NCBI GenBank assembly: GCA_964475205.1
Contig: CAYYVQ010000005.1
Location: forward strand, 6,158 to 70,157
DNA length: 64,000 bases
Direction of reading: 5' to 3'
Source of the DNA: an uncultured Victivallales bacterium
GTDB lineage: Bacteria > Verrucomicrobiota > Kiritimatiellia > UBA8416 > CAYSRM01
This document shows, in pieces, positions 5,910 through 57,396 of the stretch. A program made the position numbers and the translations under genes. How positions within the stretch are numbered: the first letter of the stretch is position 1; each line of letters begins with the position of its first letter. The notes under the pieces were generated by a model. It saw nothing but the letters and a program-made list of their open reading frames with translations, was not told the origin of the DNA and made no database searches.

Positions 5910-6090
5910 TAACCCGCATATCTCACAGAATTCCTGCTGCGAGCGTGGATAGCACCACTGCGACGGCACGAATTGACAAAACGCCAGATTGCAGTATGTC
6001 TATACGACTGCTCCGGCGTTTTACCAATTCGCACCCCCGCAGCAGTACTTTCCACGCTCTCACTACGAAATCCTGTGAGATATGCGGGAT
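5910..6090. repeat. MITE family A, complete copy (~180 bp, TIR TTAACCCGCATATCTCACAG / CTGTGAGATATGCGGG)
   Basis: Perfect 16-bp TIRs. Internal ~80 bp recur at 23630-23710 and inverted at 36590-36690. Solo TIRs at 6227, 9236 and 43388. Confidence 0.7.
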
Positions 6091-6109
6091 AAGGGGACGG
6101 AAACAATCA

Positions 6110-6182
6110 GTCGAGCGGTTTCGACCCACACTGCCAATACTCTGAACCGTTTCTGCTCGAAAAAGTGCGAGCAATGCGGGCT
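6110..6182. repeat. MITE family B, right half of the split copy
   Basis: Matches the right interior and TIR of the 1807-1970 copy (GGTTCGACCCACACTGCCAATACTC...CAATGCGGGCTA). Confidence 0.6.
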
Positions 6183-6244
6183 AATCGGGTAGGACGACTT
6201 GGCGCTATCAATTGTTTCTACCGGAGGACTGTGAGATATGCGGA

Positions 6245-6844
6245 TTAAAACTGCGCGGCTTCGTAGCATCCGAGAAAGCGAAAAGACGGGAACTTTTCGC
6301 TGTGTTCGAGAATGGATTTTATGCCTTCAAGAATATGGGACTGGAAGATGTCGTCCATGATGTGGCCTTCCATTATGATGTAGAACATCTTGGCGTCCTT
6401 CTTTTTCAAAGACGGTTCCACGGCGGGCCTTGAAAATATATCGGTCATGTTGACCCTGTATATGCCTACAACGCTGCTGATGTCTCTCAGAAGCCCGGGG
6501 CGGTCATTATGCGGGGTTATGGCGACCAGAATTCTGTATTCTCTGTTCTTGGCCCTGTGCGGAACCGCAGGTTCGGGAGATATAATAAAATATATTTTGC
6601 CGGAAATCTTTGTCTCTGCGTTAACGTAGAATCTTCTTTTGTAAAGCTGATCGAAATTTTCCTCAATCCTGCCGTGAAAAGAATCCTCCGCTTCAATAAC
6701 CGCCAGGTCAATCTCGTTAGCCGCTAATGCGGAAAACATAGCTTCGCTGCTGTCGAACAGCACCGGTTCGACCCTGTTGCCGCATTGACCGGCATACATA
6801 GTTACAGCCTTCCGCGATTTCTCGTCTGTGCATCCTGCCTTCAT
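6245..6844 (-). CDS. prephenate dehydratase-like protein (partial PDT domain plus ACT regulatory domain)
   Basis: ACT-domain pattern typical of PheA (YRILVAITPHNDRPGLLRDISSVVG...MFYIIMEGH). Start overlaps the aroG stop by 4 nt (ATGA). About 80 aa shorter than a canonical PheA. Confidence 0.5.
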   Translation of the reverse strand: MKAGCTDEKSRKAVTMYAGQCGNRVEPVLFDSSEAMFSALAANEIDLAVIEAEDSFHGRIEENFDQLYKRRFYVNAETKISGKIYFIISPEPAVPHRAKNREYRILVAITPHNDRPGLLRDISSVVGIYRVNMTDIFSRPAVEPSLKKKDAKMFYIIMEGHIMDDIFQSHILEGIKSILEHSEKFPSFRFLGCYEAAQF

Positions 6845-9210: not shown

Positions 9211-9431
9211 TCCCTATCGCAAAGTGATAGAAATCAAATTAACCCGCATATCTCACGAGTTCAGCGTACTACAGATCCAAGACGTTTTGTTTAATGAAAT
9301 TCCGTGAACGGGAAGAACAAGCGCCACCTGGCAGGGTTTTTAGAACAGGTTGGCTTCTAGCGGGGCCAAGTTCGCCTGCTAATGTCAGACGGCAGTTGGA
9401 CTGTTGAGTCAAGAACGGGCGTATTATTCGA

Positions 9432-16049: not shown

Positions 16050-16284
16050 AACCTATATACGGCACTTGAAATTCGGGAAGCGATGTATATTATTACAAAT
16101 AAGGAGTTTACAATTTATTGCGCCCCCACCCAAAGGGTGCGGGCGAGCTTCCCGAATTTCAAGCCGCAAGGGGTTGCCGATTTCACTGCATCTGCTTCGT
16201 TCTGAGGTCTTCGGCATAGTTACTATAGCCGAAAACCTCACGCCTTGCAGCTACAGCAAACTCGGCAACTGCCGTTTCTAGGTT
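16050..16284. repeat. MITE family E copy 1 (~230 bp, imperfect TIR AACCTATATACGGC / GCCGTTTCTAGGTT, internal 16-bp-stem hairpin)
   Basis: Identical (inverted) to 59511-59745. ORF-track ORFs 15928..16281 and 16053..16241 are repeat artefacts. Confidence 0.7.
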
Positions 16285-20145: not shown

Positions 20146-20223
20146 GCTTTCATTACTCTTCATTAAACTTTTGACACTACCGAATCGGTTTGATGATGTC
20201 AAGATCGGCGGCAACGCCATCAG

Positions 20224-20416
20224 CAATTCTCATTATGGCCTCTTTCCGCCAAAACCTATTTGTATAACGATGTGCGTAGTAGCGCGGGCTTCACCGAAGC
20301 CCAGCGCTCTTGGGGCCTCGGCTTCGGTGAAGCCGGGCCTACTCGCGCGTGGCTGCAATATCGTGCCGGAACTCTGGCCACGCCAAACGTGGCAAAATGG
20401 CCATAATGAGAATTGC
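20224..20416. repeat. MITE family C copy 1 (~190 bp, perfect 18-bp TIR GCAATTCTCATTATGGCC)
   Basis: TIRs and the central palindrome GGGCTTCACCGAAGCCC...GGCTTCGGTGAAGCCGGGCC. Second copy at 57204-57396. Confidence 0.75.
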
Positions 20417-23582: not shown

Positions 23583-23857
23583 CCCGCGAAACCAATGGAT
23601 TTATACTCCCTTCTGTACGGTTATGCCAGCAGATTCCGGCGTTTTACCAATTTGCACCCCCGCAGGAGCACTCTCCACGCTCTCGCGACGAAATCCTCGC
23701 TTATTTCGGGGCTACTGCAAAATGCGGTACTTGCCGGTTTTCGTTTGACTCGAGCCTTTACGGCATGGTAGATACTTAAAGTGTAACAGTTTGCATAAGA
23801 TTAAAAAGCGGGCAGGAGAACAAGGGGCATCACTATGTTGCCCGGTGTGAACAGGCT

Positions 23858-30646: not shown

Positions 30647-31621
30647 TTAGAGGAGCCCTGTCAACAGTTTGACTGCATTGTCGAAATCGTGGTAGTTGAC
30701 TGTTTCCGAAGAAGAATGCAGATACCGGCACGGAATTGAAAGACAGCCCGACTCAACGCCGCTTTGAGAAGTCTGAATAGCGCGCGCGTCAGTCGAGCCA
30801 AACCCGAGCACTTCAATTTGATATGGAATGCGGCGCTTTTCTGCGGTTTCAATCATTAACTCCTTGACCCTGGGTGAAGCGAGCATCCCTCCGTCTTTTA
30901 TTTTTACCGCGGGCCCCTTGCCGAGTTCAATCGCCATCTTATAAGGGGGTTCGGGTGTGTCAGGACAAGCCGTGACATCCACCGCAATGCCCATGTCAGG
31001 CTCTATGCCGTAAGCGCCGGTAATGGCCCCGCGCAATCCGACTTCTTCCTGGACACTGAACACAAAATATACGTCATGGGTTGATTTCTTTAATGCCCGT
31101 AAAACCCCTATCAATACCGCGCAACCAATCCGATCATCTAAGGCTTTCGCAATGATGTTATCACCGCGCTTCTCCATTCCGCTGTCAAAACAAGCTGCGT
31201 CACCCACCTTCACCGGATTGCTGCGGTCATTCCCGCTCACATCCACAAAAAGTTTGTCAAATTGCGGGATTTTTTTCTTATCGTCCTGTTTTTCCATGCC
31301 GATAACGCCTATCGTTCCATCAGCAAAACGCACCCTTTTGGTAACAGCACATAAAGGATTAACCCCGCCGATAGGATTGACCCTCAGAAAACCGCGCTGG
31401 TCAATGTATGCAACAATCACACCGATCTCGTCCATGTGCGCGGAAAGCATCACCTTGCGTCCGTTGCCGGCGCCTTTTTTCAATACAATTAAATTACCCA
31501 GCGCATCGACCCTGATGTCATCGGCCAGACCGTCAAGTTCGCTCTTTATGATTTCACGCACATGTTCTTCATGCCCAGACGGTCCATAAGCTTCAACCAG
31601 CTTCTTTATTACTTCTTTCAT
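30647..31621 (-). CDS. M42 family aminopeptidase (FrvX/TET-like), paralogue 1
   Basis: M42 metal-ligand motifs. Start at MKEVIKK matches the paralogue N-termini. Confidence 0.8.
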   Translation of the reverse strand: MKEVIKKLVEAYGPSGHEEHVREIIKSELDGLADDIRVDALGNLIVLKKGAGNGRKVMLSAHMDEIGVIVAYIDQRGFLRVNPIGGVNPLCAVTKRVRFADGTIGVIGMEKQDDKKKIPQFDKLFVDVSGNDRSNPVKVGDAACFDSGMEKRGDNIIAKALDDRIGCAVLIGVLRALKKSTHDVYFVFSVQEEVGLRGAITGAYGIEPDMGIAVDVTACPDTPEPPYKMAIELGKGPAVKIKDGGMLASPRVKELMIETAEKRRIPYQIEVLGFGSTDARAIQTSQSGVESGCLSIPCRYLHSSSETVNYHDFDNAVKLLTGLL

Positions 31622-31758
31622 CTCTGCTTTGCCTTTCGCGTCTTTCAAAAATCTTTCCTTTTTTATGTTCCTTGCGTTTTCTGAGGTTCTTCTTCCTGGC
31701 AACCAATGACCAATGACACGCGCGAAGCGAGTAAATAACTAATGATTTCTCTTTTCCC

Positions 31759-32775
31759 CTACAACCGTTGCATAATCTTCAGCATAAGTTTTACGGTGTT
31801 GTTCAAATCTTTTTTGCTCATCATCGAAACCGGCGAATGAATATAGCGGCATGGAGCCGAAACTGCCACAGTAGGGACTCCTCTGCGTGCAAGATGAATA
31901 GCCCCGGCGTCAGTCCCTCCCTGGCCCGGCTGTTTAATCTGATACGGAATCTTTTCCTCTTCCGCGGTCGAAATCAATAACTGTACCATGTCTTTGTCGG
32001 CAATCATGGTTTTATCCATAACACTGATGGCCGGGCCTTTGCCCAGCTCTGTTGTCGGACTGATATCCTTATCTTTTGGCGAGTCATCGCAAATGGTTCC
32101 TTCAAGCACAAATGCCGCATCCGGTTCAATCCCGAAAGCCGCCACCCGCGCACCGCGTAATCCGACTTCTTCCATTGTTGTGAACACCGGATAGAAATCA
32201 AACGGATACGGTCCGGCCTTGATCAGTTCAATTAACGCTGCACAGCCAGCACGGTCATCAAAAGCCTTGCCCTTAACCACGCCGCCCAGATCTTCAAATT
32301 CAGTTGCAAATACCGCGTAATCTCCCTGGTTGACCAACTTTTCAGCCTCCTCGCGACTGCTCACCCCGATATCAATAACCATCGCGTCATGCTTGATGAT
32401 TTTTTTGCGCTCATCCGGAGGGGTAAGATGCACCGGCTTGATGCAAATCAAACCTGGGACACGGTCTTTTCCAATCAAAACTTTCTTGGCAGGCAGAACA
32501 CGGTCATCTATTCCGCCGACCTTCTGGAAAAAAAGCAGACCTTTTTCATTGGCGTGTGAAATCATCAGTCCGATCTCATCCATGTGCGCCGCCATCATTA
32601 TCTTCCGCCGTTTTCGCCCCGTGCCCTTTTTGAACCCCAGCAGATTGCCAAGAGAATCAACCCGCAGGCTGTCCACATTCGAACGGACTGCTGATATGAT
32701 GATATCTCTCACAGCAGATTCATCGCCGGCCACACCCGCCGCATTTGACAGTTTTTCAAGTGTTTTCAGTTTCAT
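31759..32775 (-). CDS. M42 family aminopeptidase, paralogue 2
   Basis: M42 family motifs. Confidence 0.8.
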   Translation of the reverse strand: MKLKTLEKLSNAAGVAGDESAVRDIIISAVRSNVDSLRVDSLGNLLGFKKGTGRKRRKIMMAAHMDEIGLMISHANEKGLLFFQKVGGIDDRVLPAKKVLIGKDRVPGLICIKPVHLTPPDERKKIIKHDAMVIDIGVSSREEAEKLVNQGDYAVFATEFEDLGGVVKGKAFDDRAGCAALIELIKAGPYPFDFYPVFTTMEEVGLRGARVAAFGIEPDAAFVLEGTICDDSPKDKDISPTTELGKGPAISVMDKTMIADKDMVQLLISTAEEEKIPYQIKQPGQGGTDAGAIHLARRGVPTVAVSAPCRYIHSPVSMMSKKDLNNTVKLMLKIMQRL

Positions 32776-32809
32776 TATATTTTGCGCTTACAACCCTTCG
32801 CCGCATACC

Positions 32810-33877
32810 CTATTTAATTTCACGTGAAAGTTTATCGATAAAAACGTTGTCAAGGCCGGCGATAAAATGCGCCAGCAATCTTCCCGTCCGTTCAACATCT
32901 TTAACCTGCAGCATTTCCACCGGTGTGTGCATGCTGCGCAAAGGAATACTCAGCAAAGCGGTTGGTATCCCGGCACGGGTTAGCTGTATGGCATTGGCAT
33001 CAGTGCCGGTGCCGCGGGTGCAGATTTCTGTTTGAAAAGGAATTTCATGTTGCAGGGCTGTTTTACGCAAAGCTTCAAACATTTCCGGGTGGATATTCGG
33101 CCCCCTGCACAACGCAGGACCTTTACCCAGTTCAACCGCATTTAACGCTTCCGGAATGCCGGGTTGTTTGCCGAAACCGACATCAATCGCAATTCCGATA
33201 TCCGGGGCAACACTGTAAGCGCCGGTAATTGCTCCGCGCAACCCGACTTCCTCCTGTACCGTGGCCACAGCGTAAACATCCCACGAATGGGTCAAATTGC
33301 GCAATTGCTCCATGCAGCAGGCAATTGCAGTGACCGATGCCCGGTCATCAAAGGCCTTGCCGCTTACATGACCGTTCTGTAACTCGGTGAATCCGCCGCG
33401 GATTGAAATCAAATCGCCTGGACGCACGTTCTTTTCCAGTTCTCTGGCGGTCAGGCCTGTATCAATAAAAAGCTCATCCATTGGCGCCGGTTTGGAACGT
33501 TCCTGTTCATTCAACACATGCGGCGGACGGGAACCGATAATTCCGGGCAACCGCCGCTTTCCGTGAACAAGCACCTCGCGTCCCGGCAATGTGCGCACGT
33601 CAAATCCGCCTACTTGTGTAAAACGGATGAATCCTTTCTCCAGAACTGTAACAATCAGCCCGATCTCATCCATATGCCCGGCAAGCATAATCCGCCATCG
33701 TGCTGTATTGCTCTTTCCGTGCCCCTGTTTCAAGGCAATCAGGTTTCCCATTGCGTCAACACGAACATCGTCCGCGAAGGCGCCGAACTGTTCGCGCACA
33801 ATCTCGCGAATCTCTTCCTCATAGCCGGAAACCCCGTTCGCCTCGGACAATTGTTTAAGAAACGAAACTGTGTTCAC
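32810..33877 (-). CDS. M42 family aminopeptidase, paralogue 3
   Basis: M42 family motifs. Confidence 0.8.
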   Translation of the reverse strand: MNTVSFLKQLSEANGVSGYEEEIREIVREQFGAFADDVRVDAMGNLIALKQGHGKSNTARWRIMLAGHMDEIGLIVTVLEKGFIRFTQVGGFDVRTLPGREVLVHGKRRLPGIIGSRPPHVLNEQERSKPAPMDELFIDTGLTARELEKNVRPGDLISIRGGFTELQNGHVSGKAFDDRASVTAIACCMEQLRNLTHSWDVYAVATVQEEVGLRGAITGAYSVAPDIGIAIDVGFGKQPGIPEALNAVELGKGPALCRGPNIHPEMFEALRKTALQHEIPFQTEICTRGTGTDANAIQLTRAGIPTALLSIPLRSMHTPVEMLQVKDVERTGRLLAHFIAGLDNVFIDKLSREIK

Positions 33878-33995: not shown

Positions 33996-35322
33996 TTAGG
34001 GACACACCTTTTATATTTACGGATCATATAGATCAATCTCAAAACGTTACCCGCATGAAGAATCTATATTAACAGGAGAAATACAAGGCCCAGCCTGACC
34101 TCTGCGCGCGGACTCAGCCGGTGTGTTGCCATGACATAACCACATCACCCGGCATTCCCTGCCATTTCATTGAATCCGGGCGCTATCTGACCTTGCAACC
34201 ATACCCTTGGGCTGTGCTACACCGTGTCAGCTGCCCGCAGGCGCCGACACCGCCTCAAGCCGCAGGTCACGCATAGTGCATAACCCGCCCCAGTCACCAC
34301 AGCGCATCGCTCTTGCCCCGCTTTTGCGTTTCAGCCCGAACTCATTCCGGTATCGCCTGTATATGCCTTCAACATATTCTCGGCTGCCCAGAACTACCCC
34401 GTCTGAAAAATACCTTACGCGGCAGCGCAACACTTCAGCTTTCGGCAACCTGCCACCTTCTTCCAGTACCTGACGCACCTTCTCATAGGAAAAACCTATC
34501 CTGCCGGATGTCTGTTCTCCCCGCATATACAACAGCTTGCGATATTTATGGCTCACCTGACCCCATACCGCCGTCCCAGGATCAAGAGACAGCATCACGC
34601 TTCCCAACCCCTGCCTGGCTCTCCTGCCTCCTGCCATAGCTTCCGCGTAGCCGCAATAACGGTAATTGCGGGGATCTGACACGGTTCCTGACCTGACCGG
34701 GTTAAGGTCTATGTACGAGGCCATCATGATCAAGACATTCTCGCTGTTTTCCACCAGTATGCTTTTAAATCGCTCCTCCCACAATGTGCCGCGCCTGACA
34801 TTGTTACGGTTATACCACATGGAAAAACGCTGCTTGAGCGTCTTCATGAACTGCGAGACGTCATACATCCGGTACAGGTATTTCTCCCGAAGCTGCCTCA
34901 CATAGGCTTCCTGATTATCTTCCCTGGCCTCCTTAAGCAGCCTTTCATACTCGGCCACAAAGGGTTTTGAATACAGCAGCCTCATTCTCTCAAGAAGCTG
35001 ATCATCGTCTATTTCCTGCCTTTCAGGAACATGGACAAGGATATGGAAATGATTGCCCATCACCGCATAGGTAAGGATATTGACCCCGCAGAAACCCTCC
35101 ACCTTGCGCATCATCTTCCTGAATACTTCCTTTTCCACATCACCCAGAACCATCCTGCGCTCTATCACCCTGGACATGCAATGATAGTACCCGCCTTCTT
35201 CTATCTTGACCCGTGCCGTGCGCATAATACCTCCCCGCTCAGAAATTCATACATTTGCTGACTTTCAGCAAAGTGTACACCGTAGCGCATTCCATTGCAA
35301 CTTATTAATGGTGTGTCCCTAA
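33996..35322 (-). mobile_element. IS-like unit (~1.33 kb) bounded by perfect 13-bp inverted repeats TTAGGGACACACC / GGTGTGTCCCTAA and carrying a single RAYT-like gene
   Basis: TIRs read directly at 33996-34008 and 35310-35322. Tandem AATCTTAGG AATCTTAGG at the left end. Confidence 0.45.
34227..35225 (-). CDS. HUH/Y1 transposase of the IS200-like / REP-associated tyrosine transposase (RAYT) type, long form (332 aa)
   Basis: N-terminal YHCMSRVIERR, HUH motif HFHILV, catalytic-Tyr region SYIDLNPV. Confidence 0.7.
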   Translation of the reverse strand: MRTARVKIEEGGYYHCMSRVIERRMVLGDVEKEVFRKMMRKVEGFCGVNILTYAVMGNHFHILVHVPERQEIDDDQLLERMRLLYSKPFVAEYERLLKEAREDNQEAYVRQLREKYLYRMYDVSQFMKTLKQRFSMWYNRNNVRRGTLWEERFKSILVENSENVLIMMASYIDLNPVRSGTVSDPRNYRYCGYAEAMAGGRRARQGLGSVMLSLDPGTAVWGQVSHKYRKLLYMRGEQTSGRIGFSYEKVRQVLEEGGRLPKAEVLRCRVRYFSDGVVLGSREYVEGIYRRYRNEFGLKRKSGARAMRCGDWGGLCTMRDLRLEAVSAPAGS

Positions 35323-35760
35323 TTACCTTCCGTTGGAAGGAATATTACTACGCTATTGCCAAGAACTGGAACAGCGGTTGGGGAGAATTATATCGTTCGA
35401 AAGACGGCTTGACACCGTTTGACTCCAGGGGAAGATTCGTTTACAGACTGCGGCATTGTGCTGTTATGCTTCGCGACAATCAGCTTCTCGTATTCTATAC
35501 TGTGGCAGGTGAGATGGGTATAGCGATGGCAGAACTTGACATCAAAATCAAGTAGACGGCAGATCAAGATGAACGTGGTCACGGTCGCGAAAGCGCCTGA
35601 AACCCGCATGCGGGTTAGCCCTCTGCGATTTGGGCCGTCAAAAGCATTTGGGAAGAAATGCTGTTATGCCGGCCGCATTATTTGTGCGGAATCAAGTGAA
35701 GAATTGCTGGCTTATATTGACGATGCTGATATCATAATGCGAAAAGTTAGTTAAAACACC

Positions 35761-35858
35761 GGGTCGTAGCGCAGCCTGGCAGCATCCCGACCTCTGCGCC
35801 AAATCGCGAGAGTCGGGGCTTTGGAAACTGAAAGTCGTGGGTCAAATCCCACAGTACA
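35761..35858 (+). pseudogene. degenerate tRNA-like element (tRNA-Pro-like 5' end and D-arm, ~30-nt hairpin insertion, mutated T-loop, non-pairing 3' end)
   Basis: CGGGTCGTAGCGCAGCCTGGCAGC...GTGGGTCAAATCCCAC shares the 5' acceptor and D-arm with the adjacent tRNA-Pro, but the acceptor stem cannot close. Confidence 0.35.
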
Positions 35859-35859
35859 G

Positions 35860-35936
35860 CGGGGCGTAGCGCAGCTTGGCAGCGCGTCAGCTTTGGGAGC
35901 TGAAAGTCGTGGGTTCGAATCCCACCGCCCCGACCA
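35860..35936 (+). tRNA. tRNA-Pro (anticodon UGG)
   Basis: 77 nt. 7-bp acceptor CGGGGCG/CGCCCCG, D-arm GCGC/GCGC, anticodon stem TCAGC/GCTGA with loop TTTGGGA, T-arm GTGGG-TTCGAAT-CCCAC, encoded CCA. Confidence 0.9.
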
Positions 35937-35939
35937 TTT

Positions 35940-36400
35940 GGTATATTCCAGACACAACAGTAACTTTCAGATCCATATCAAACTTGTTTCCGATAAAGGG
36001 ATGAGAACCCACGAAGTGGGTTTGTCTACCTCAATGCGGGAGCTTCGAGGTAGTGGCTGGCCTTGAGCCAGCCCCGAAGGGCAAGGCCGTCGGGCGACGG
36101 CCGCAGCAATCCCACCGCCCCGACCATTTCGGATTTTTCCCGCCGTCGGCGGAAAAATCCGAAATGGTCGAGCCTCCTTCGAGATATCCGAACCTGGTTC
36201 GAGGGCCACTATCGGCGATCCTGACCGACCCCCGCGCTTCGCGCGGTGATACTACCCCGGCAGGCCGCCCGCCAGCGCTCCGCGCTGTCATGCGTCCTGC
36301 TCCTACCCGCACCCGCCGTGACAGCTTCGCTGGCGGCCTGCCTGCATAGTACCCGAGGCGCGAAGCGCCGCGGGGGGTACCGTCTACCGTTCATGACGGG
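35940..36400. repeat. cluster of REP-like palindromes/hairpins downstream of tRNA-Pro, ending in a ~180-nt GC-rich imperfect rod hairpin
   Basis: Hairpins AACCCAC/GTGGGTT, CTACCTC/GAGGTAG, GGCTGG/CCAGCC, CGGCCGTCG/CGACGGCCG, CGGATTTTTCCGCC/GGCGGAAAAATCCG. Long-range pairing CCCCCGCGCTTCGCGCG...CGCGAAGCGCCGCGGGGGG. Confidence 0.5.
36106..36129 (+). repeat. direct repeat of the tRNA-Pro 3' end (AATCCCACCGCCCCGACCATTT), attR-like
   Basis: 23/23 identical to 35914-35939, about 190 bp downstream of the tRNA. Confidence 0.6.
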
Positions 36401-36456
36401 TCTTGTCTCTCAAAGTAGGTTCGAATATCACGAAGGAGGCTCGACTCCGTATTACG

Positions 36457-36711
36457 ATGTTCTGGGTTTACATACTCTATAGCCCAACATTTGACCGCTA
36501 TTATAAAAGCCAGACTGAAAATCTGACAGACAGACTCATAATGCATTTCGAGGCCAAAACAAAGTCTACATGCTCCGCAAAAAACTGGCTGCTTGTCTTC
36601 AGACAGTCCCTTAACCCGCATATCTCACAGGATTTCGTAGTGAGAGCGTGGAAAGTGCTTCTGCGGGGGTGCGAATTGGTAAAACGCCTGAGAATTTATA
36701 AAGAGGTATAA
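36457..36711 (+). pseudogene. GIY-YIG (YhbQ/UPF0213-like) nuclease-domain gene with its 3' end replaced by a MITE-A half copy
   Basis: MFWVYILYSPTFDRYYKSQTENLTDRLIMH matches the GIY-YIG core. After ~55 codons the frame runs into TTAACCCGCATATCTCACAG (the MITE-A TIR). Confidence 0.5.
36590..36690. repeat. MITE family A half copy (inverted)
   Basis: Matches 6005-6090 in reverse complement. Confidence 0.6.
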
Positions 36712-36768
36712 TTGGACAGAATCAACAAATTTATCGTATATTTCATAGTAGAAAACTTTTTTAGCCTG

Positions 36769-36931
36769 ATCTATTCATCAACTTCGTGATAAGAGTGCGC
36801 ATGTTGCTTTAGATCAATGGCTTTGTGCAGATAGCCGGGTGTAGGCGCATAGACATGCGTCAAAATCGGCTGGCCAGCAAAGTCGTTGAGATGAAGTGAC
36901 ATGAACACTCGTAATAGATTTTTATGAATAG
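36769..36931. repeat. MITE family D copy 1 (~165 bp, TIR GATCTATTCATCAA / TTTTTATGAATAG(A/C)TC)
   Basis: About 92% identical to 55573-55739. The 63-aa ORF inside is not conserved in the second copy. Confidence 0.7.
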
Positions 36932-37012
36932 CTCGGGTTAGGATATGTATTTTTTTTAACAATACAAAATCCTATATTTACAATACAAATATCCAAAATC
37001 TAGAAACAAACT

Positions 37013-38146
37013 ATGGCCAAAGAAGAAAAATTTATTCCCTTTGATGTGATTGAAAAATTCATGGTTGATGTGATGGTAAAAGCCAACATCCCGGAGGATG
37101 ATGCCAGGATAGTGGCAGATGTGCTGGTTAAAGCAGATAAACTTGGTGTTGATTCGCACGGGGTAAACAGGCTTAAACCCATATATCTGGACCGGATCAA
37201 TGACGGCATCCTTAATCCGGTTACCAATTTTGAGGTAGTGAAGGAAGCGCCTGCTACAGCAGTAGTTGACGGACATAATGGTATGGGCCACGTTATCGCA
37301 TACAAGTCTATGCAAATGGCCATTGATAAAGCCAAAAAGTATGGTATGGGGATGGTTGCTGTAAGAAATTCGACCCATTATGGTTTTGCCGGTTACTATC
37401 CGCTGATGGCTACCGGACAAGACATGATAGGCATAACCGGAACCAATGCCAGACCTTCTATTGCACCTACCTTTGGTGTGGAAAACATGTTGGGAACCAA
37501 CCCATTGACTTTCGGAATGCCCAGCGATGAAGGTTTTCCCTTTTTACTGGACTGTGCTACCTCCATTACCCAGCGCGGCAAGGTTGAATTATACGCCCGC
37601 CAGGGCAAAGAAATGCCCAAAGGATGGGTCATTGATAAAAACGGAGAATCGAAAACGAACTCTGTAGAAGTACTGGAAGACCTGATAGCTGGAAGAGCTG
37701 CATTTACACCGCTGGGTGGAGTGGGAGAAGAAACAGGAGGCTACAAGGGTTATGGATATGCTACGGTTGTAGAAATTCTCTCTTCTGCCCTGCAACAGGG
37801 CGCCTATCTGAAAATGCTTTTGGGCGTTAAAGATGGCAAAAAAGTTCCGTATCCCTTAGGCCATTTCTTTATTGCCATTGATATAAATGCTTTTACCGAA
37901 CCCGCTGACTTTAAAAAAACCACAGGCGATATTCTCAGAAAACTGCGTGCTTCTCAGAAGATGCCGGGAGAAAAGAGAATTTATACAGCAGGAGAAAAGG
38001 AGCATGATGCCTGGATTTACAGAAAAGACAAAGGGGTTCCCTTTAATGATGCTTTATTTGAAGAATTTGCCGGAATGTGTAAAACGTATGGTCTGGAAGA
38101 ATATCTTCCCCATTTTAAGCAACAATTTCCGGTTTCCAGAATATAA
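37013..38146 (+). CDS. Ldh_2 family (malate/L-sulfolactate dehydrogenase-like) oxidoreductase, in a markedly AT-rich segment
   Basis: Ldh_2 motifs (VDSHGVNRL, HYGFAGYY). Local GC is clearly below the window average when read directly. Confidence 0.8.
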   Translation: MAKEEKFIPFDVIEKFMVDVMVKANIPEDDARIVADVLVKADKLGVDSHGVNRLKPIYLDRINDGILNPVTNFEVVKEAPATAVVDGHNGMGHVIAYKSMQMAIDKAKKYGMGMVAVRNSTHYGFAGYYPLMATGQDMIGITGTNARPSIAPTFGVENMLGTNPLTFGMPSDEGFPFLLDCATSITQRGKVELYARQGKEMPKGWVIDKNGESKTNSVEVLEDLIAGRAAFTPLGGVGEETGGYKGYGYATVVEILSSALQQGAYLKMLLGVKDGKKVPYPLGHFFIAIDINAFTEPADFKKTTGDILRKLRASQKMPGEKRIYTAGEKEHDAWIYRKDKGVPFNDALFEEFAGMCKTYGLEEYLPHFKQQFPVSRI

Positions 38147-38287
38147 TAAAATCCCCTGCTGTCATTTACACCTGAGCCCCGCTGCATCCAAAATAGGCCA
38201 ATCAAATGACATGTTATTTCTGGGACAGGACATCAGGAAAATCTACAAGGCGAGATAAAAACATGAAAGGATTTTTCTCAGGATAAA

Positions 38288-43389: not shown

Positions 43390-43634
43390 CATTAACCCGC
43401 ATATCTCACACTGCGGGTTAATCAATTCGGATACCGATCACCACTGACTGTAACGGTTCATAAACAATGTAATTAATCGTGAGAGGGTTCGCGCCGAGAC
43501 AGTACGCCAGAGCTTACTGGGTTTCCTGGCTCCGCTTCTCAAAAATGTTGCTTTCTTTTTATGTTGTCGAAAAGCCTGTTGGCCCTTAAAATTGCGGCAT
43601 TTACGACCGTAATAGCAGCAAAAGAGAAAGGCCG

Positions 43635-55370: not shown

Positions 55371-55572
55371 AAATACTGACAGGGCTCACGCCCTTTCATT
55401 TCCTTGGATCGTTGGAAGCAGGTCGGTTAAGCGTATCCAAGTAAGGGTGGCGGTTAAGAAAGCGACTAAGCGTACGATCAGGTGCGCGCTTCGCTCTCAC
55501 ACTTAAACCTACACTTCACCGCACACGTAAGCTCACACTTACTTATTTACACCTAAACGAACTGCTTAGCCT

Positions 55573-55739
55573 TATCTATTCATCAACTTCGTAATGAGAG
55601 TGCGCAGGTTGCTTTAGATCAATGGCTTTGCGCAGATAGCCGGGTGAAGGCGTATGAACATACGTCAAGATCGGCTGGCCAGCAAAGTCGTTGAGATTAA
55701 GTGACATGCACACTCGTAATAGGTTTTTATGAATAGATC
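55573..55739. repeat. MITE family D copy 2
   Basis: See 36769-36931. Confidence 0.7.
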
Positions 55740-55948
55740 AGGCTAGCCATCCCCAACATCTACTCTCAACGGTCTTGCCATAAATGCACTCTCCCATATT
55801 ACCAACACTCCGTCCAGTGTGAAATGTGAAGACGTGACCCTGTTTGACCCTGTTTGACTCGAAAAATCCGGGTCACCCCGGGGGCGGGGCTAATGGATGG
55901 CCCCAGTCTCGGATGGGGTAAAAAATGGAAGTACCTTCGGGTTTTCGC

Positions 55949-57028: not shown

Positions 57029-57203
57029 TTACAATTCCTCTCTATCACTAAATGCTTTTGTCGTCGCAAACTCCCTTTGCCACATAAGTATCCAATATGT
57101 TCGTTACCAGGTGTAACAGAAGCGAGTTTTACTCCTGAGAAATAGGGACATACAATTTATCATCACTTGCTGCCATCGCGCAAGTGGTCCAGGATTCCGA
57201 GCA

Positions 57204-57396
57204 GCAATTCTCATTATGGCCTCTTTCCGCCAAAACCTATTCGTATGACGATGTGCGGGTAGTAGCGCGGGCTTCACCGAAGCCCAGCGCTGTTGGGGCC
57301 TCGGCTTCGGTGAAGCCGGGCCTACTCGCGCATGGCTGCAATATCGTGGCGGAACTCTGGCCCACGTCAAACGTGACAAAATGGCCATAATTATTG
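57204..57396. repeat. MITE family C copy 2 (right TIR partly degraded)
   Basis: See 20224-20416. Confidence 0.7.

Follow-up and report, generated by a model that had tools for sequence, protein, structure and literature searches.

The 64-kb stretch of DNA analysed here (the window) contains a single tRNA gene recognised by ARAGORN, tRNA-Pro(TGG), located on the forward strand at positions 35860-35936. The gene encodes tRNA-Pro(UGG) together with its CCA end and scores 69 bits against the Rfam tRNA family RF00005, and the intact gene reported in the first-pass annotation is thereby borne out. Directly upstream, on the same strand, is a 99-nt element (35761-35859) identified by repeat blocks and alignment as a decayed tandem copy of tRNA-Pro. 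The two sequences share two blocks with 89-92% identity: positions 35756-35783 on the side of the copy match 35856-35883 on the side of tRNA-Pro, and positions 35818-35842 match 35890-35914. The blocks are parted in the copy by a 33-nt hairpin insert (35786-35818), which replaces the 5' anticodon stem. A 14-mer, CCNGACCTCTGCGC, is common to positions 34094 and 35786, which are its sole exact copies, and the significance of this match is marginal.

According to the alignment, the T-loop of the upstream copy is one base short (TCAAAT), and its 3' end, AGTACAG, does not pair with the 5' acceptor strand. The hairpin insert, the altered T-loop and the non-closing 3' end that had been ascribed to this degenerate copy are therefore all present. 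The element has no match to the Rfam tRNA model even at E<=10 and receives no ARAGORN call at the default or the 80% threshold, with or without introns; its minimum free energy (MFE) fold is not a cloverleaf, and it does not have the architecture of a functional tRNA, in which the acceptor stem is closed and an anticodon arm is combined with a canonical T-loop. The question raised with the first annotation, whether this element could fold as a functional tRNA, is answered in the negative by ARAGORN, Rfam and the MFE fold alike, showing that it is a non-functional pseudo-tRNA. It would represent an older tandem duplicate of tRNA-Pro, inactivated by the 33-nt hairpin insertion and point changes.

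Direct repeat of the tRNA-Pro 3' end

The 3' end of tRNA-Pro is found a second time downstream of the gene, in the orientation of the tRNA. The repeat, AATCCCACCGCCCCGACCATTT, comprises 22 nt that are identical at all 22 positions in copy 1 (35918-35939, forward strand), which resembles an attL core, and in copy 2 (36108-36129, forward strand), which resembles an attR site with a displaced tRNA 3' fragment. The exact downstream repeat at a distance of about 190 bp was correctly recognised in the first pass; its length is 22 nt rather than 23, with a spacing of 190. It consists of the 3' half of the T-loop, the 3' strand of the T-stem, the 3' strand of the acceptor stem, ACCA and TTT, and thus reaches 3 nt beyond the CCA. 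With up to three mismatches allowed, only 0.01 matches to the first 19 nt of the repeat are expected by chance in the window. On the 5' side of the two copies, 7 of 22 nt are identical by our own count, which is the random level, and identity thus begins abruptly, inside the T-loop. A third, degenerate copy was considered at 38150-38167, where other assemblies break, and was rejected because its alignment score is only among the top 6-23% of window segments.

A regenerated tRNA gene accompanied by a displaced fragment is a mark of integrated genomic islands: of the 3919 islands in the Islander collection, 3760 show a 3' fragment and 1836 an attP in the T-stem region, and integrases that target tRNA genes usually cross over in the T-loop (PMC4383910). 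The locus resembles such islands in that an intact tRNA gene and its cognate fragment lie on one replicon, the fragment being an exact copy of the 3' end, from the T-loop to past the CCA, situated downstream in the same orientation. Unlike Islander islands, which span 2-200 kb and carry a tyrosine integrase gene between the tRNA gene and the fragment, it has only 168 bp between the repeats, and this interval is devoid of genes. Candidates shorter than 2 kb are rejected by Islander (PMC4383910), and every known integrative element is much longer than 168 bp. The Pfam search of the ORFs of at least 150 aa in the 64-kb window revealed housekeeping genes and no integrase, nor any recombinase or other mobile-element gene apart from a Y1 transposase. 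The attL/attR signature proposed in the first annotation is thus supported by the position and orientation of the repeat and by its sharp boundary in the T-loop, but not by an integrase in the window or by the size of the enclosed DNA. Since no integrase was found among the window ORFs of at least 150 aa and the repeats enclose only 168 bp, the structure is to be regarded as a scar or a gene-less remnant and not as a working element.

Decay of integrated elements to CIMEs (cis-mobilizable elements), which are flanked by att sites and contain no genes, and their tandem accretion have been documented (PMC5704250). The locus is comparable to a CIME in retaining attL and attR, represented by two intact 22-nt att-like cores, after loss of recombination and transfer genes, with no recombinase and no genes between the cores, and in being part of a tract that resembles accreted decayed elements. 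It differs in being an order of magnitude smaller than the described CIMEs and in having no known cognate ICE or IME. Partial tRNA genes are also a by-product of integration (PMC9897764), and both the upstream copy and the downstream 3' fragment beside the canonical gene agree with the partial and non-canonical tRNA genes described there; the internal 33-nt hairpin insertion and the antisense tRNA fragments discussed below are, in contrast, atypical of simple integration.

Site-specific recombination between the two cores would be predicted to yield an excised circle with the junction …GGCCGCAGC-22mer-GGTATATTCC… and an empty site in which the tRNA end is joined straight to CGGATTTTTCC… and the 168 bp are absent. 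Viral contigs contained neither an exact match to the 20-21-mers of the predicted attP junction nor any match to the tRNA 5' body. The tRNA-Pro end TTCGAATCCCACCGCCCCGACCA is present in 28 contigs of IMG/VR, and at least 13 of these have it as a fragment without the full tRNA; two proviruses contain both the full tRNA and a fragment, and one viral fragment is located some 80 nt away from an ORF that matches Phage_integrase weakly. In viral contigs, too, the end of tRNA-Pro is used as an att-type fragment, as in tRNA-integrated islands. The viral fragments begin in the anticodon loop, whereas the fragment at this locus begins in the T-loop, indicating that they are analogues of it and not relatives.

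Spacer hairpins and palindromes

The 168-bp spacer between the repeats (35940-36107) consists of two dissimilar parts. Its left 65 nt are AT-rich (GC 0.37) and unstructured, while four hairpins of 7 bp each (36006-36022, 36026-36053, 36055-36073 and 36085-36102) are confined to the right 100 nt, where folding gives z = -3.0; the fold of the longer segment 35937-36175 has z = -6.4. The chain of palindromes described in the first pass is accordingly present with all four hairpins, with uniform 7-bp stems and in the right 100 nt of the spacer only. The spacer also contains pieces of tRNA-Pro in the antisense orientation: positions 35998-36014 are complementary to the T-arm at 15 of 17 nt, and positions 35963-35974 to the anticodon-stem/variable region at 11 of 12 nt. 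The enrichment of tRNA-Pro fragments on the antisense strand of the spacer has P~0.007 relative to random window segments. Pieces derived from the tRNA are found in hairpin arms as well, namely CCCGAC/GTCGGGG, AACCCAC/GTGGGTT and CGACCATTT/AAATGGTCG.

Several known types of structured sequence were considered for these hairpins and rejected. The four sequences differ from one another and have no other copies, which speaks against a REP/BIME array; inspection revealed no R'/R'' motifs of an integron attC site; and for a retron or a group I intron there was neither a reverse transcriptase gene among the ORFs scanned nor an Rfam match. An intrinsic terminator was likewise discarded for the 20-bp hairpin described below, as its T-run lies 5' of the GC stem and not 3' of it.

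Repeat copy 2 runs into a perfect palindrome (36121-36170), detected by repeat search and folding, whose 20-bp stem encloses a 10-nt centre. Its left arm opens with the last 9 nt of copy 2 (CGACCATTT), and a small GC palindrome occupies its centre. The hairpin noted after the repeat therefore exists, its stem being a perfect 20 bp and not 14 bp. Next follows an imperfect GC-rich palindrome of 279 nt (36167-36445), recognised by the same means. This is the GC-rich rod of the first-pass annotation, which had been given as about 180 nt long and in fact extends beyond the end at 36400 assigned to it. The outer arms of the palindrome (36167-36208 and 36404-36445) are about 83% complementary over 42 nt, with indels; complementarity is perfect over their terminal 15 nt, and the right arm includes GGTTCGAAT. 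The core (36210-36400) has a GC content of 0.71, the maximum of the window (mean 0.508, sd 0.043). The MFE is -159.5 kcal/mol on the forward strand (z = -8.65) and -171.5 on the reverse strand (z = -9.5), and the block folds far beyond shuffled sequences as DNA also, with z between -8.65 and -9.5 over both strands and DNA. Both strands of the palindromes fold equally well, and the mismatches in the arms have no G-U bias.

The 279-nt palindrome appears to be a single-copy sequence. Within the window its 15-nt terminus occurs solely at its own two ends, and searches by blastn and nhmmer of the window plus fetched loci totalling about 1.5 Mb found no other copies of the palindrome. When its two termini were used together as a gapped pattern in a metagenome scan, two matches resulted, both due to chance, one being an assembly fold-back and the other a coding sequence. 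The region 35940-36460 had no blastn match among plasmids and phages, the six-frame translation of 36095-36455 found nothing when used as a protein query, and 19-21-mers of the palindrome terminus and of the predicted attP junctions had no exact match in viral contigs. In the search against Rfam 15 the tRNA alone passes, all other matches having E>=0.56 and scores far below gathering. Neither a promoter-like site at the 5' end of the palindrome nor a target-site duplication was found.

REPINs are REP doublets that form hairpins and are mobilised by RAYT transposases. The 279-nt palindrome is similar to REPINs and fold-back MITEs in its imperfect palindromic structure with terminal inverted repeats (the 15-nt complementary termini), its extragenic position, its occurrence in a MITE-rich genome and its distance of 0.9 kb from a RAYT-like gene. 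Unlike them, it is not dispersed in multiple copies, being single-copy in the window, in the fetched loci and in all searches, and lacks a target-site duplication; its termini are unrelated both to the inverted repeats around the RAYT-like gene and to the termini of the other MITEs, and it is far richer in GC than the genome. It is most economically read as a DNA-level fold-back duplication, or else as a fold-back insertion present once, with no function today; a lineage-specific element would be a less economical reading, the search within this genome having covered 64 kb.

Variable DNA and assembly support around the locus

An IS200/RAYT-like mobile unit on the reverse strand occupies positions 33996-35322 upstream of the pseudo-tRNA. 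It comprises a Y1 transposase gene (34227-35225; Pfam Y1_Tnp, 2.9e-14; NCBIfam REP_Tyr_transpos, 4e-18, which is below the cut-off) with 20-nt inverted repeats on either side (33996-34015 and 35303-35322). Judged by its sequence, this is an adjacent mobile unit which could be considered at most a candidate for having acted on the tRNA locus.

Downstream of the 279-nt palindrome the GC content drops to 0.42. The first feature of this tract is a remnant of a small GIY-YIG nuclease gene on the forward strand (36457-36607; Pfam GIY-YIG, E=0.01, below the cut-off), in which the YIG motif has decayed to YKS and a MITE fragment takes the place of the C-terminus; used as a protein query, the fragment matched itself alone in the protein collection. 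Repeat searches identified the adjoining sequence (36608-36688) as a partial copy of a MITE with the terminal repeat TAACCCGCATATCTCAC, further copies of which are located at 6015-6095 and 23638-23697. A second MITE-like repeat, at 36761-36931, is a 92% copy of the sequence at 55567-55745, which has 20-nt terminal inverted repeats. Several MITE families with terminal repeats of about 20 nt are present in the genome, and their termini are unrelated to those of the 279-nt palindrome.

The tract ends with a segment carrying an Ldh_2 gene on the forward strand (36946-38163; GC 0.44), recognised by Pfam and by contig comparison. At the nucleotide level the segment is 85% identical to a Bacteroidales MAG whose flanks are not syntenic; its best relatives, which are Bacteroidales MAGs, have no more than the gene (36946-38130) in common with it, and no tRNA-Pro was found near Ldh_2 in these. 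The sequence comparison suggests that the Ldh_2 gene was probably acquired horizontally. From the tRNA 3' end to about 38163 the DNA is heterogeneous in composition and contains pseudogenes, MITEs and a gene probably acquired horizontally. The RAYT-like unit, the MITEs and the GIY-YIG pseudogene had escaped the first-pass annotation, as had the possible extension of the variable DNA to about 38163.

The same species (99.7% nucleotide identity) and a close relative (91%) are known as fragmentary MAGs. The M42 peptidase cluster and the AEC/acyl-CoA-synthetase/kinase cluster are both retained in the relatives, though next to different genes. Beside neither cluster was a tRNA found in the relatives examined, and synteny is lost at the M42 cluster and at the AEC gene, which places the tRNA-Pro locus at a synteny breakpoint, in a variable, repeat-rich tract. 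An 86-aa upstream ORF proved unsuitable as a synteny anchor, being a domain fragment found in longer, unrelated proteins. The contigs of the same species and of the close relative end just upstream of the AEC transporter gene.

Assembly breaks are frequent in this region. Logan contigs of SRR11308339 stop at 35916 and resume at 37957, and among the same-species contigs from another sample one begins at 38163 and one ends at 34025. The segment 35917-37956 is supported by one NCBI MAG contig alone, and the 84-aa ORF and Ldh_2 proteins are likewise found only at NCBI. The arrangement could therefore be in part an artefact of metagenome assembly, in which two alternative downstream sequences were joined one after the other, their source being either strains that differ in carrying an island or an excised circle. 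Both the absence of the segment from Logan contigs of the same run and the breaks at 38163 and 34025 in the other sample would agree with this. However, the junction between GGCCGCAGC and the 22-mer would need real DNA for any assembler, the 22-nt repeat is below the usual final k-mer length, and the long palindrome, with its divergent arms and indels, is unlike the chimeric fold-back artefact matched in the metagenome scan. We see only a slim chance that the arrangement arose in this way.

Origin of the locus

Both att-like cores are intact, which suggests recent formation or maintenance, and the CIME concept is established (PMC5704250), so the 190-bp unit, consisting of the 168 bp and one 22-nt core, might be thought of as a complete miniature non-autonomous element mobilised in trans by an integrase from another part of the genome or from an incoming element. 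This is very unlikely. Besides the lack of an integrase among the window ORFs scanned, neither the window nor the fetched loci (about 1.5 Mb) yielded a second copy of the unit, and viral contigs contain no exact match to the predicted attP junctions. Known CIMEs measure kilobases, and 168 bp offer scant space for arm-type sites, which most tyrosine integrases require. Between the two possibilities left by the first-pass annotation, a decayed or excised island remnant fits better, while movement of a 168-bp unit is unsupported. A rather unlikely origin is one without any integrase, in which local replication errors at tRNA-Pro (tandem duplication, slippage and fold-back template switching) built the locus. 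It would account for the tandem pseudo-tRNA upstream, for the hairpin arms made from pieces of the tRNA and GGTTCGAAT in the right arm of the long palindrome, for the antisense-strand enrichment of tRNA-derived fragments, and for the 20-bp palindrome, since the GC palindrome at its centre could nucleate a fold-back. Slippage or tandem duplication does not explain the direct repeat, because either would copy the whole unit including the intervening DNA, and here only 22 nt are repeated around unrelated sequence, with a sharp 5' boundary placed exactly in the T-loop, the usual integrase crossover (PMC4383910).

It is also conceivable that the GC-rich block 36005-36445 is a functional structured ncRNA or DNA element with a mimic of the tRNA 3' end, for instance a trailer RNA that shares the tRNA-Pro transcript and is cut at the tRNA-like end, or a fold-back mobile element targeting tRNA ends. 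The block straddles repeat copy 2 with uniform composition, its folding relative to shuffled sequences is extreme (z = -8.65, -9.5 and -9.3, with -6.4 for 35937-36175), the perfectly complementary terminal 15 nt of the long palindrome are like terminal inverted repeats, and the genome is rich in MITEs. Extreme z-scores, however, come with any long palindrome and so are no sign of function; the block is single-copy, without a homolog in the metagenome scan, plasmids, phages, viral contigs, the six-frame search or nhmmer, it matches no Rfam family, neither strand preference nor G-U bias is seen, and a promoter-like 5' site and a target-site duplication are both absent. We consider a functional block of this kind very improbable. 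As for the more specific proposal that 36005-36445 is one undescribed non-autonomous fold-back element or structured RNA bearing a copy of the tRNA-Pro 3' end, there is only the slimmest chance of its being correct; if it were, the tRNA-end copy would either hijack a tRNA-targeting integrase in trans or be processed from the tRNA-Pro transcript. The locus would gain greater importance only if the palindromic block were conserved or mobile.

The explanation we prefer, to which we assign about an even chance, is that tRNA-Pro(UGG) is an integration hotspot at which the observed features are stacked, decayed products of recombination with secondary fold-back rearrangements. An element with a tyrosine integrase, whose attP core extended from the tRNA T-loop to 3 nt past the CCA, would have recombined with the tRNA gene. 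The copy brought by the element would now complete the gene (35918-35939), and the displaced host copy would be that at 36108-36129. Later deletion of the element body, including the integrase, may have left the 168 bp of non-coding DNA between the att cores in a CIME-like state. On sequence grounds, the 22-nt repeat is taken to be an att scar and at most a gene-less CIME-like stub.

A single integration event does not readily account for the entire locus. The GC-rich hairpin block 36005-36445 crosses copy 2 with no break in composition, and such a break would be expected if copy 2 divided the element from host DNA; the uniform block therefore counts against a simple attL/attR pair. The antisense tRNA fragments are not a product of one site-specific integration. 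The unbroken block, these fragments and the tRNA-derived hairpin arms together argue for extra local rearrangements after or besides integration, by fold-back template switching or repeated recombination, and the scrambled tRNA-Pro fragments in the spacer fit repeated rearrangement at the site. The same observations leave some room for the block being a single entity. Both palindromes may have arisen as template-switch fold-back duplications or as a single-copy fold-back insertion. The 20-bp palindrome is considered recent because it is perfect, and the 279-nt palindrome, with arms about 83% complementary, would be older.

The locus, a strain-variable and hard-to-assemble spot in the genome, would provide an example of a tRNA landing pad in the poorly studied phylum Verrucomicrobiota, represented here by MAGs only. 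It may illustrate the extent to which such sites decay, leaving no more than an att-flanked stub of 190 bp without a single gene, and it is useful mainly in cautioning those who search for islands or annotate tRNAs.

Proviruses at tRNA-Pro

Two viral contigs of ~38 kb each, IMGVR_UViG_3300001199_000021 (loci L105/L116) and IMGVR_UViG_3300017650_000161 (loci L108/L113), carry a full tRNA-Pro(UGG) together with a ~45-nt fragment of the tRNA 3' end, which in both cases starts within the anticodon loop. They are textbook cases of proviruses integrated in tRNA-Pro. The fragment alone is present on at least 11 additional viral contigs.

The RAYT-like transposase unit

Upstream of the tRNA locus, three tandem paralogs of the M42 aminopeptidase family (30647-33877) are retained in relatives at 73-88% protein identity, and their neighbouring genes differ. 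The next locus is a mobile unit (33996-35322) comprising a gene for an IS200/RAYT-like Y1 transposase of 332 aa (34227-35225, minus strand) and 20-nt inverted repeats on either side of it, TTAGGGACACACCTTTTATA and its complement with two mismatches. In another sample, a contig of the same species ends at 34025, which is 10 nt inside the left inverted repeat; a mobile unit that is polymorphic or present in several copies would be expected to give such a contig end. The right inverted repeat is overlapped by an ORF of 86 aa (35295-35555), which is probably a gene fragment; it shares 40-75% identity with a domain of unknown function that lies internally in 121 longer proteins of 200-950 aa. Just past the 3' end of the transposase gene lies a 14-mer, CC(T/C)GACCTCTGCGC (34094-34107), which recurs in the pseudo-tRNA, where it forms the left arm of the inserted hairpin (35786-35799); these are its only exact copies in the window, and the significance of the match is marginal.

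The variable tract beyond the long palindrome

The tract 3' of the long palindrome begins with an 84-aa ORF (36457-36711), the N-terminal 50 residues of which resemble a small GIY-YIG nuclease (FWVYILYS…YKSQTENL…RL). Its YIG motif has decayed, and one partial copy of a MITE-like element takes the place of the C-terminus; no relatives of the ORF were found in a protein collection of 5.8 billion clusters. This ORF is a pseudogene.

A gene of the malate/L-lactate dehydrogenase family (Ldh_2; 36946-38163) shares 85% DNA and 95% protein identity with a gene of an uncultured Bacteroidales MAG; the flanks are not common to the two genomes. Its GC content is 0.44, compared with 0.51 for the window. 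These features suggest a recent inter-phylum transfer, and a chimeric join is a less likely source of this segment; other assemblies break around the gene, at 37957 and 38163.

Dispersed short repeats

The MITE-like family is characterised by the terminal repeat TAACCCGCATATCTCAC and occurs at 1807-1971, 5910-6247, 9239-9256, 23638-23697, 36608-36688 and 43392-43425, as full fold-back copies of ~165-340 bp, partial copies and one solo hairpin. A metagenome contig matching the long-palindrome termini (L086, Ga0182022_1214234) was rejected as a chance match; its near-perfect fold-back (1100-2200), in which arms of more than 400 bp each flank a 260-bp centre, is most likely an artefact, either of chimeric assembly or of amplification. 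Three further intergenic repeat families were found in the 64 kb, two of them with terminal inverted repeats of ~20 nt: 20223-20416 is repeated at 57202-57391, 55567-55745 at 36761-36931, and 16050-16284 in inverted orientation, with 100% identity, at 59745-59511. Short non-coding mobile repeats are unusually abundant in this genome.
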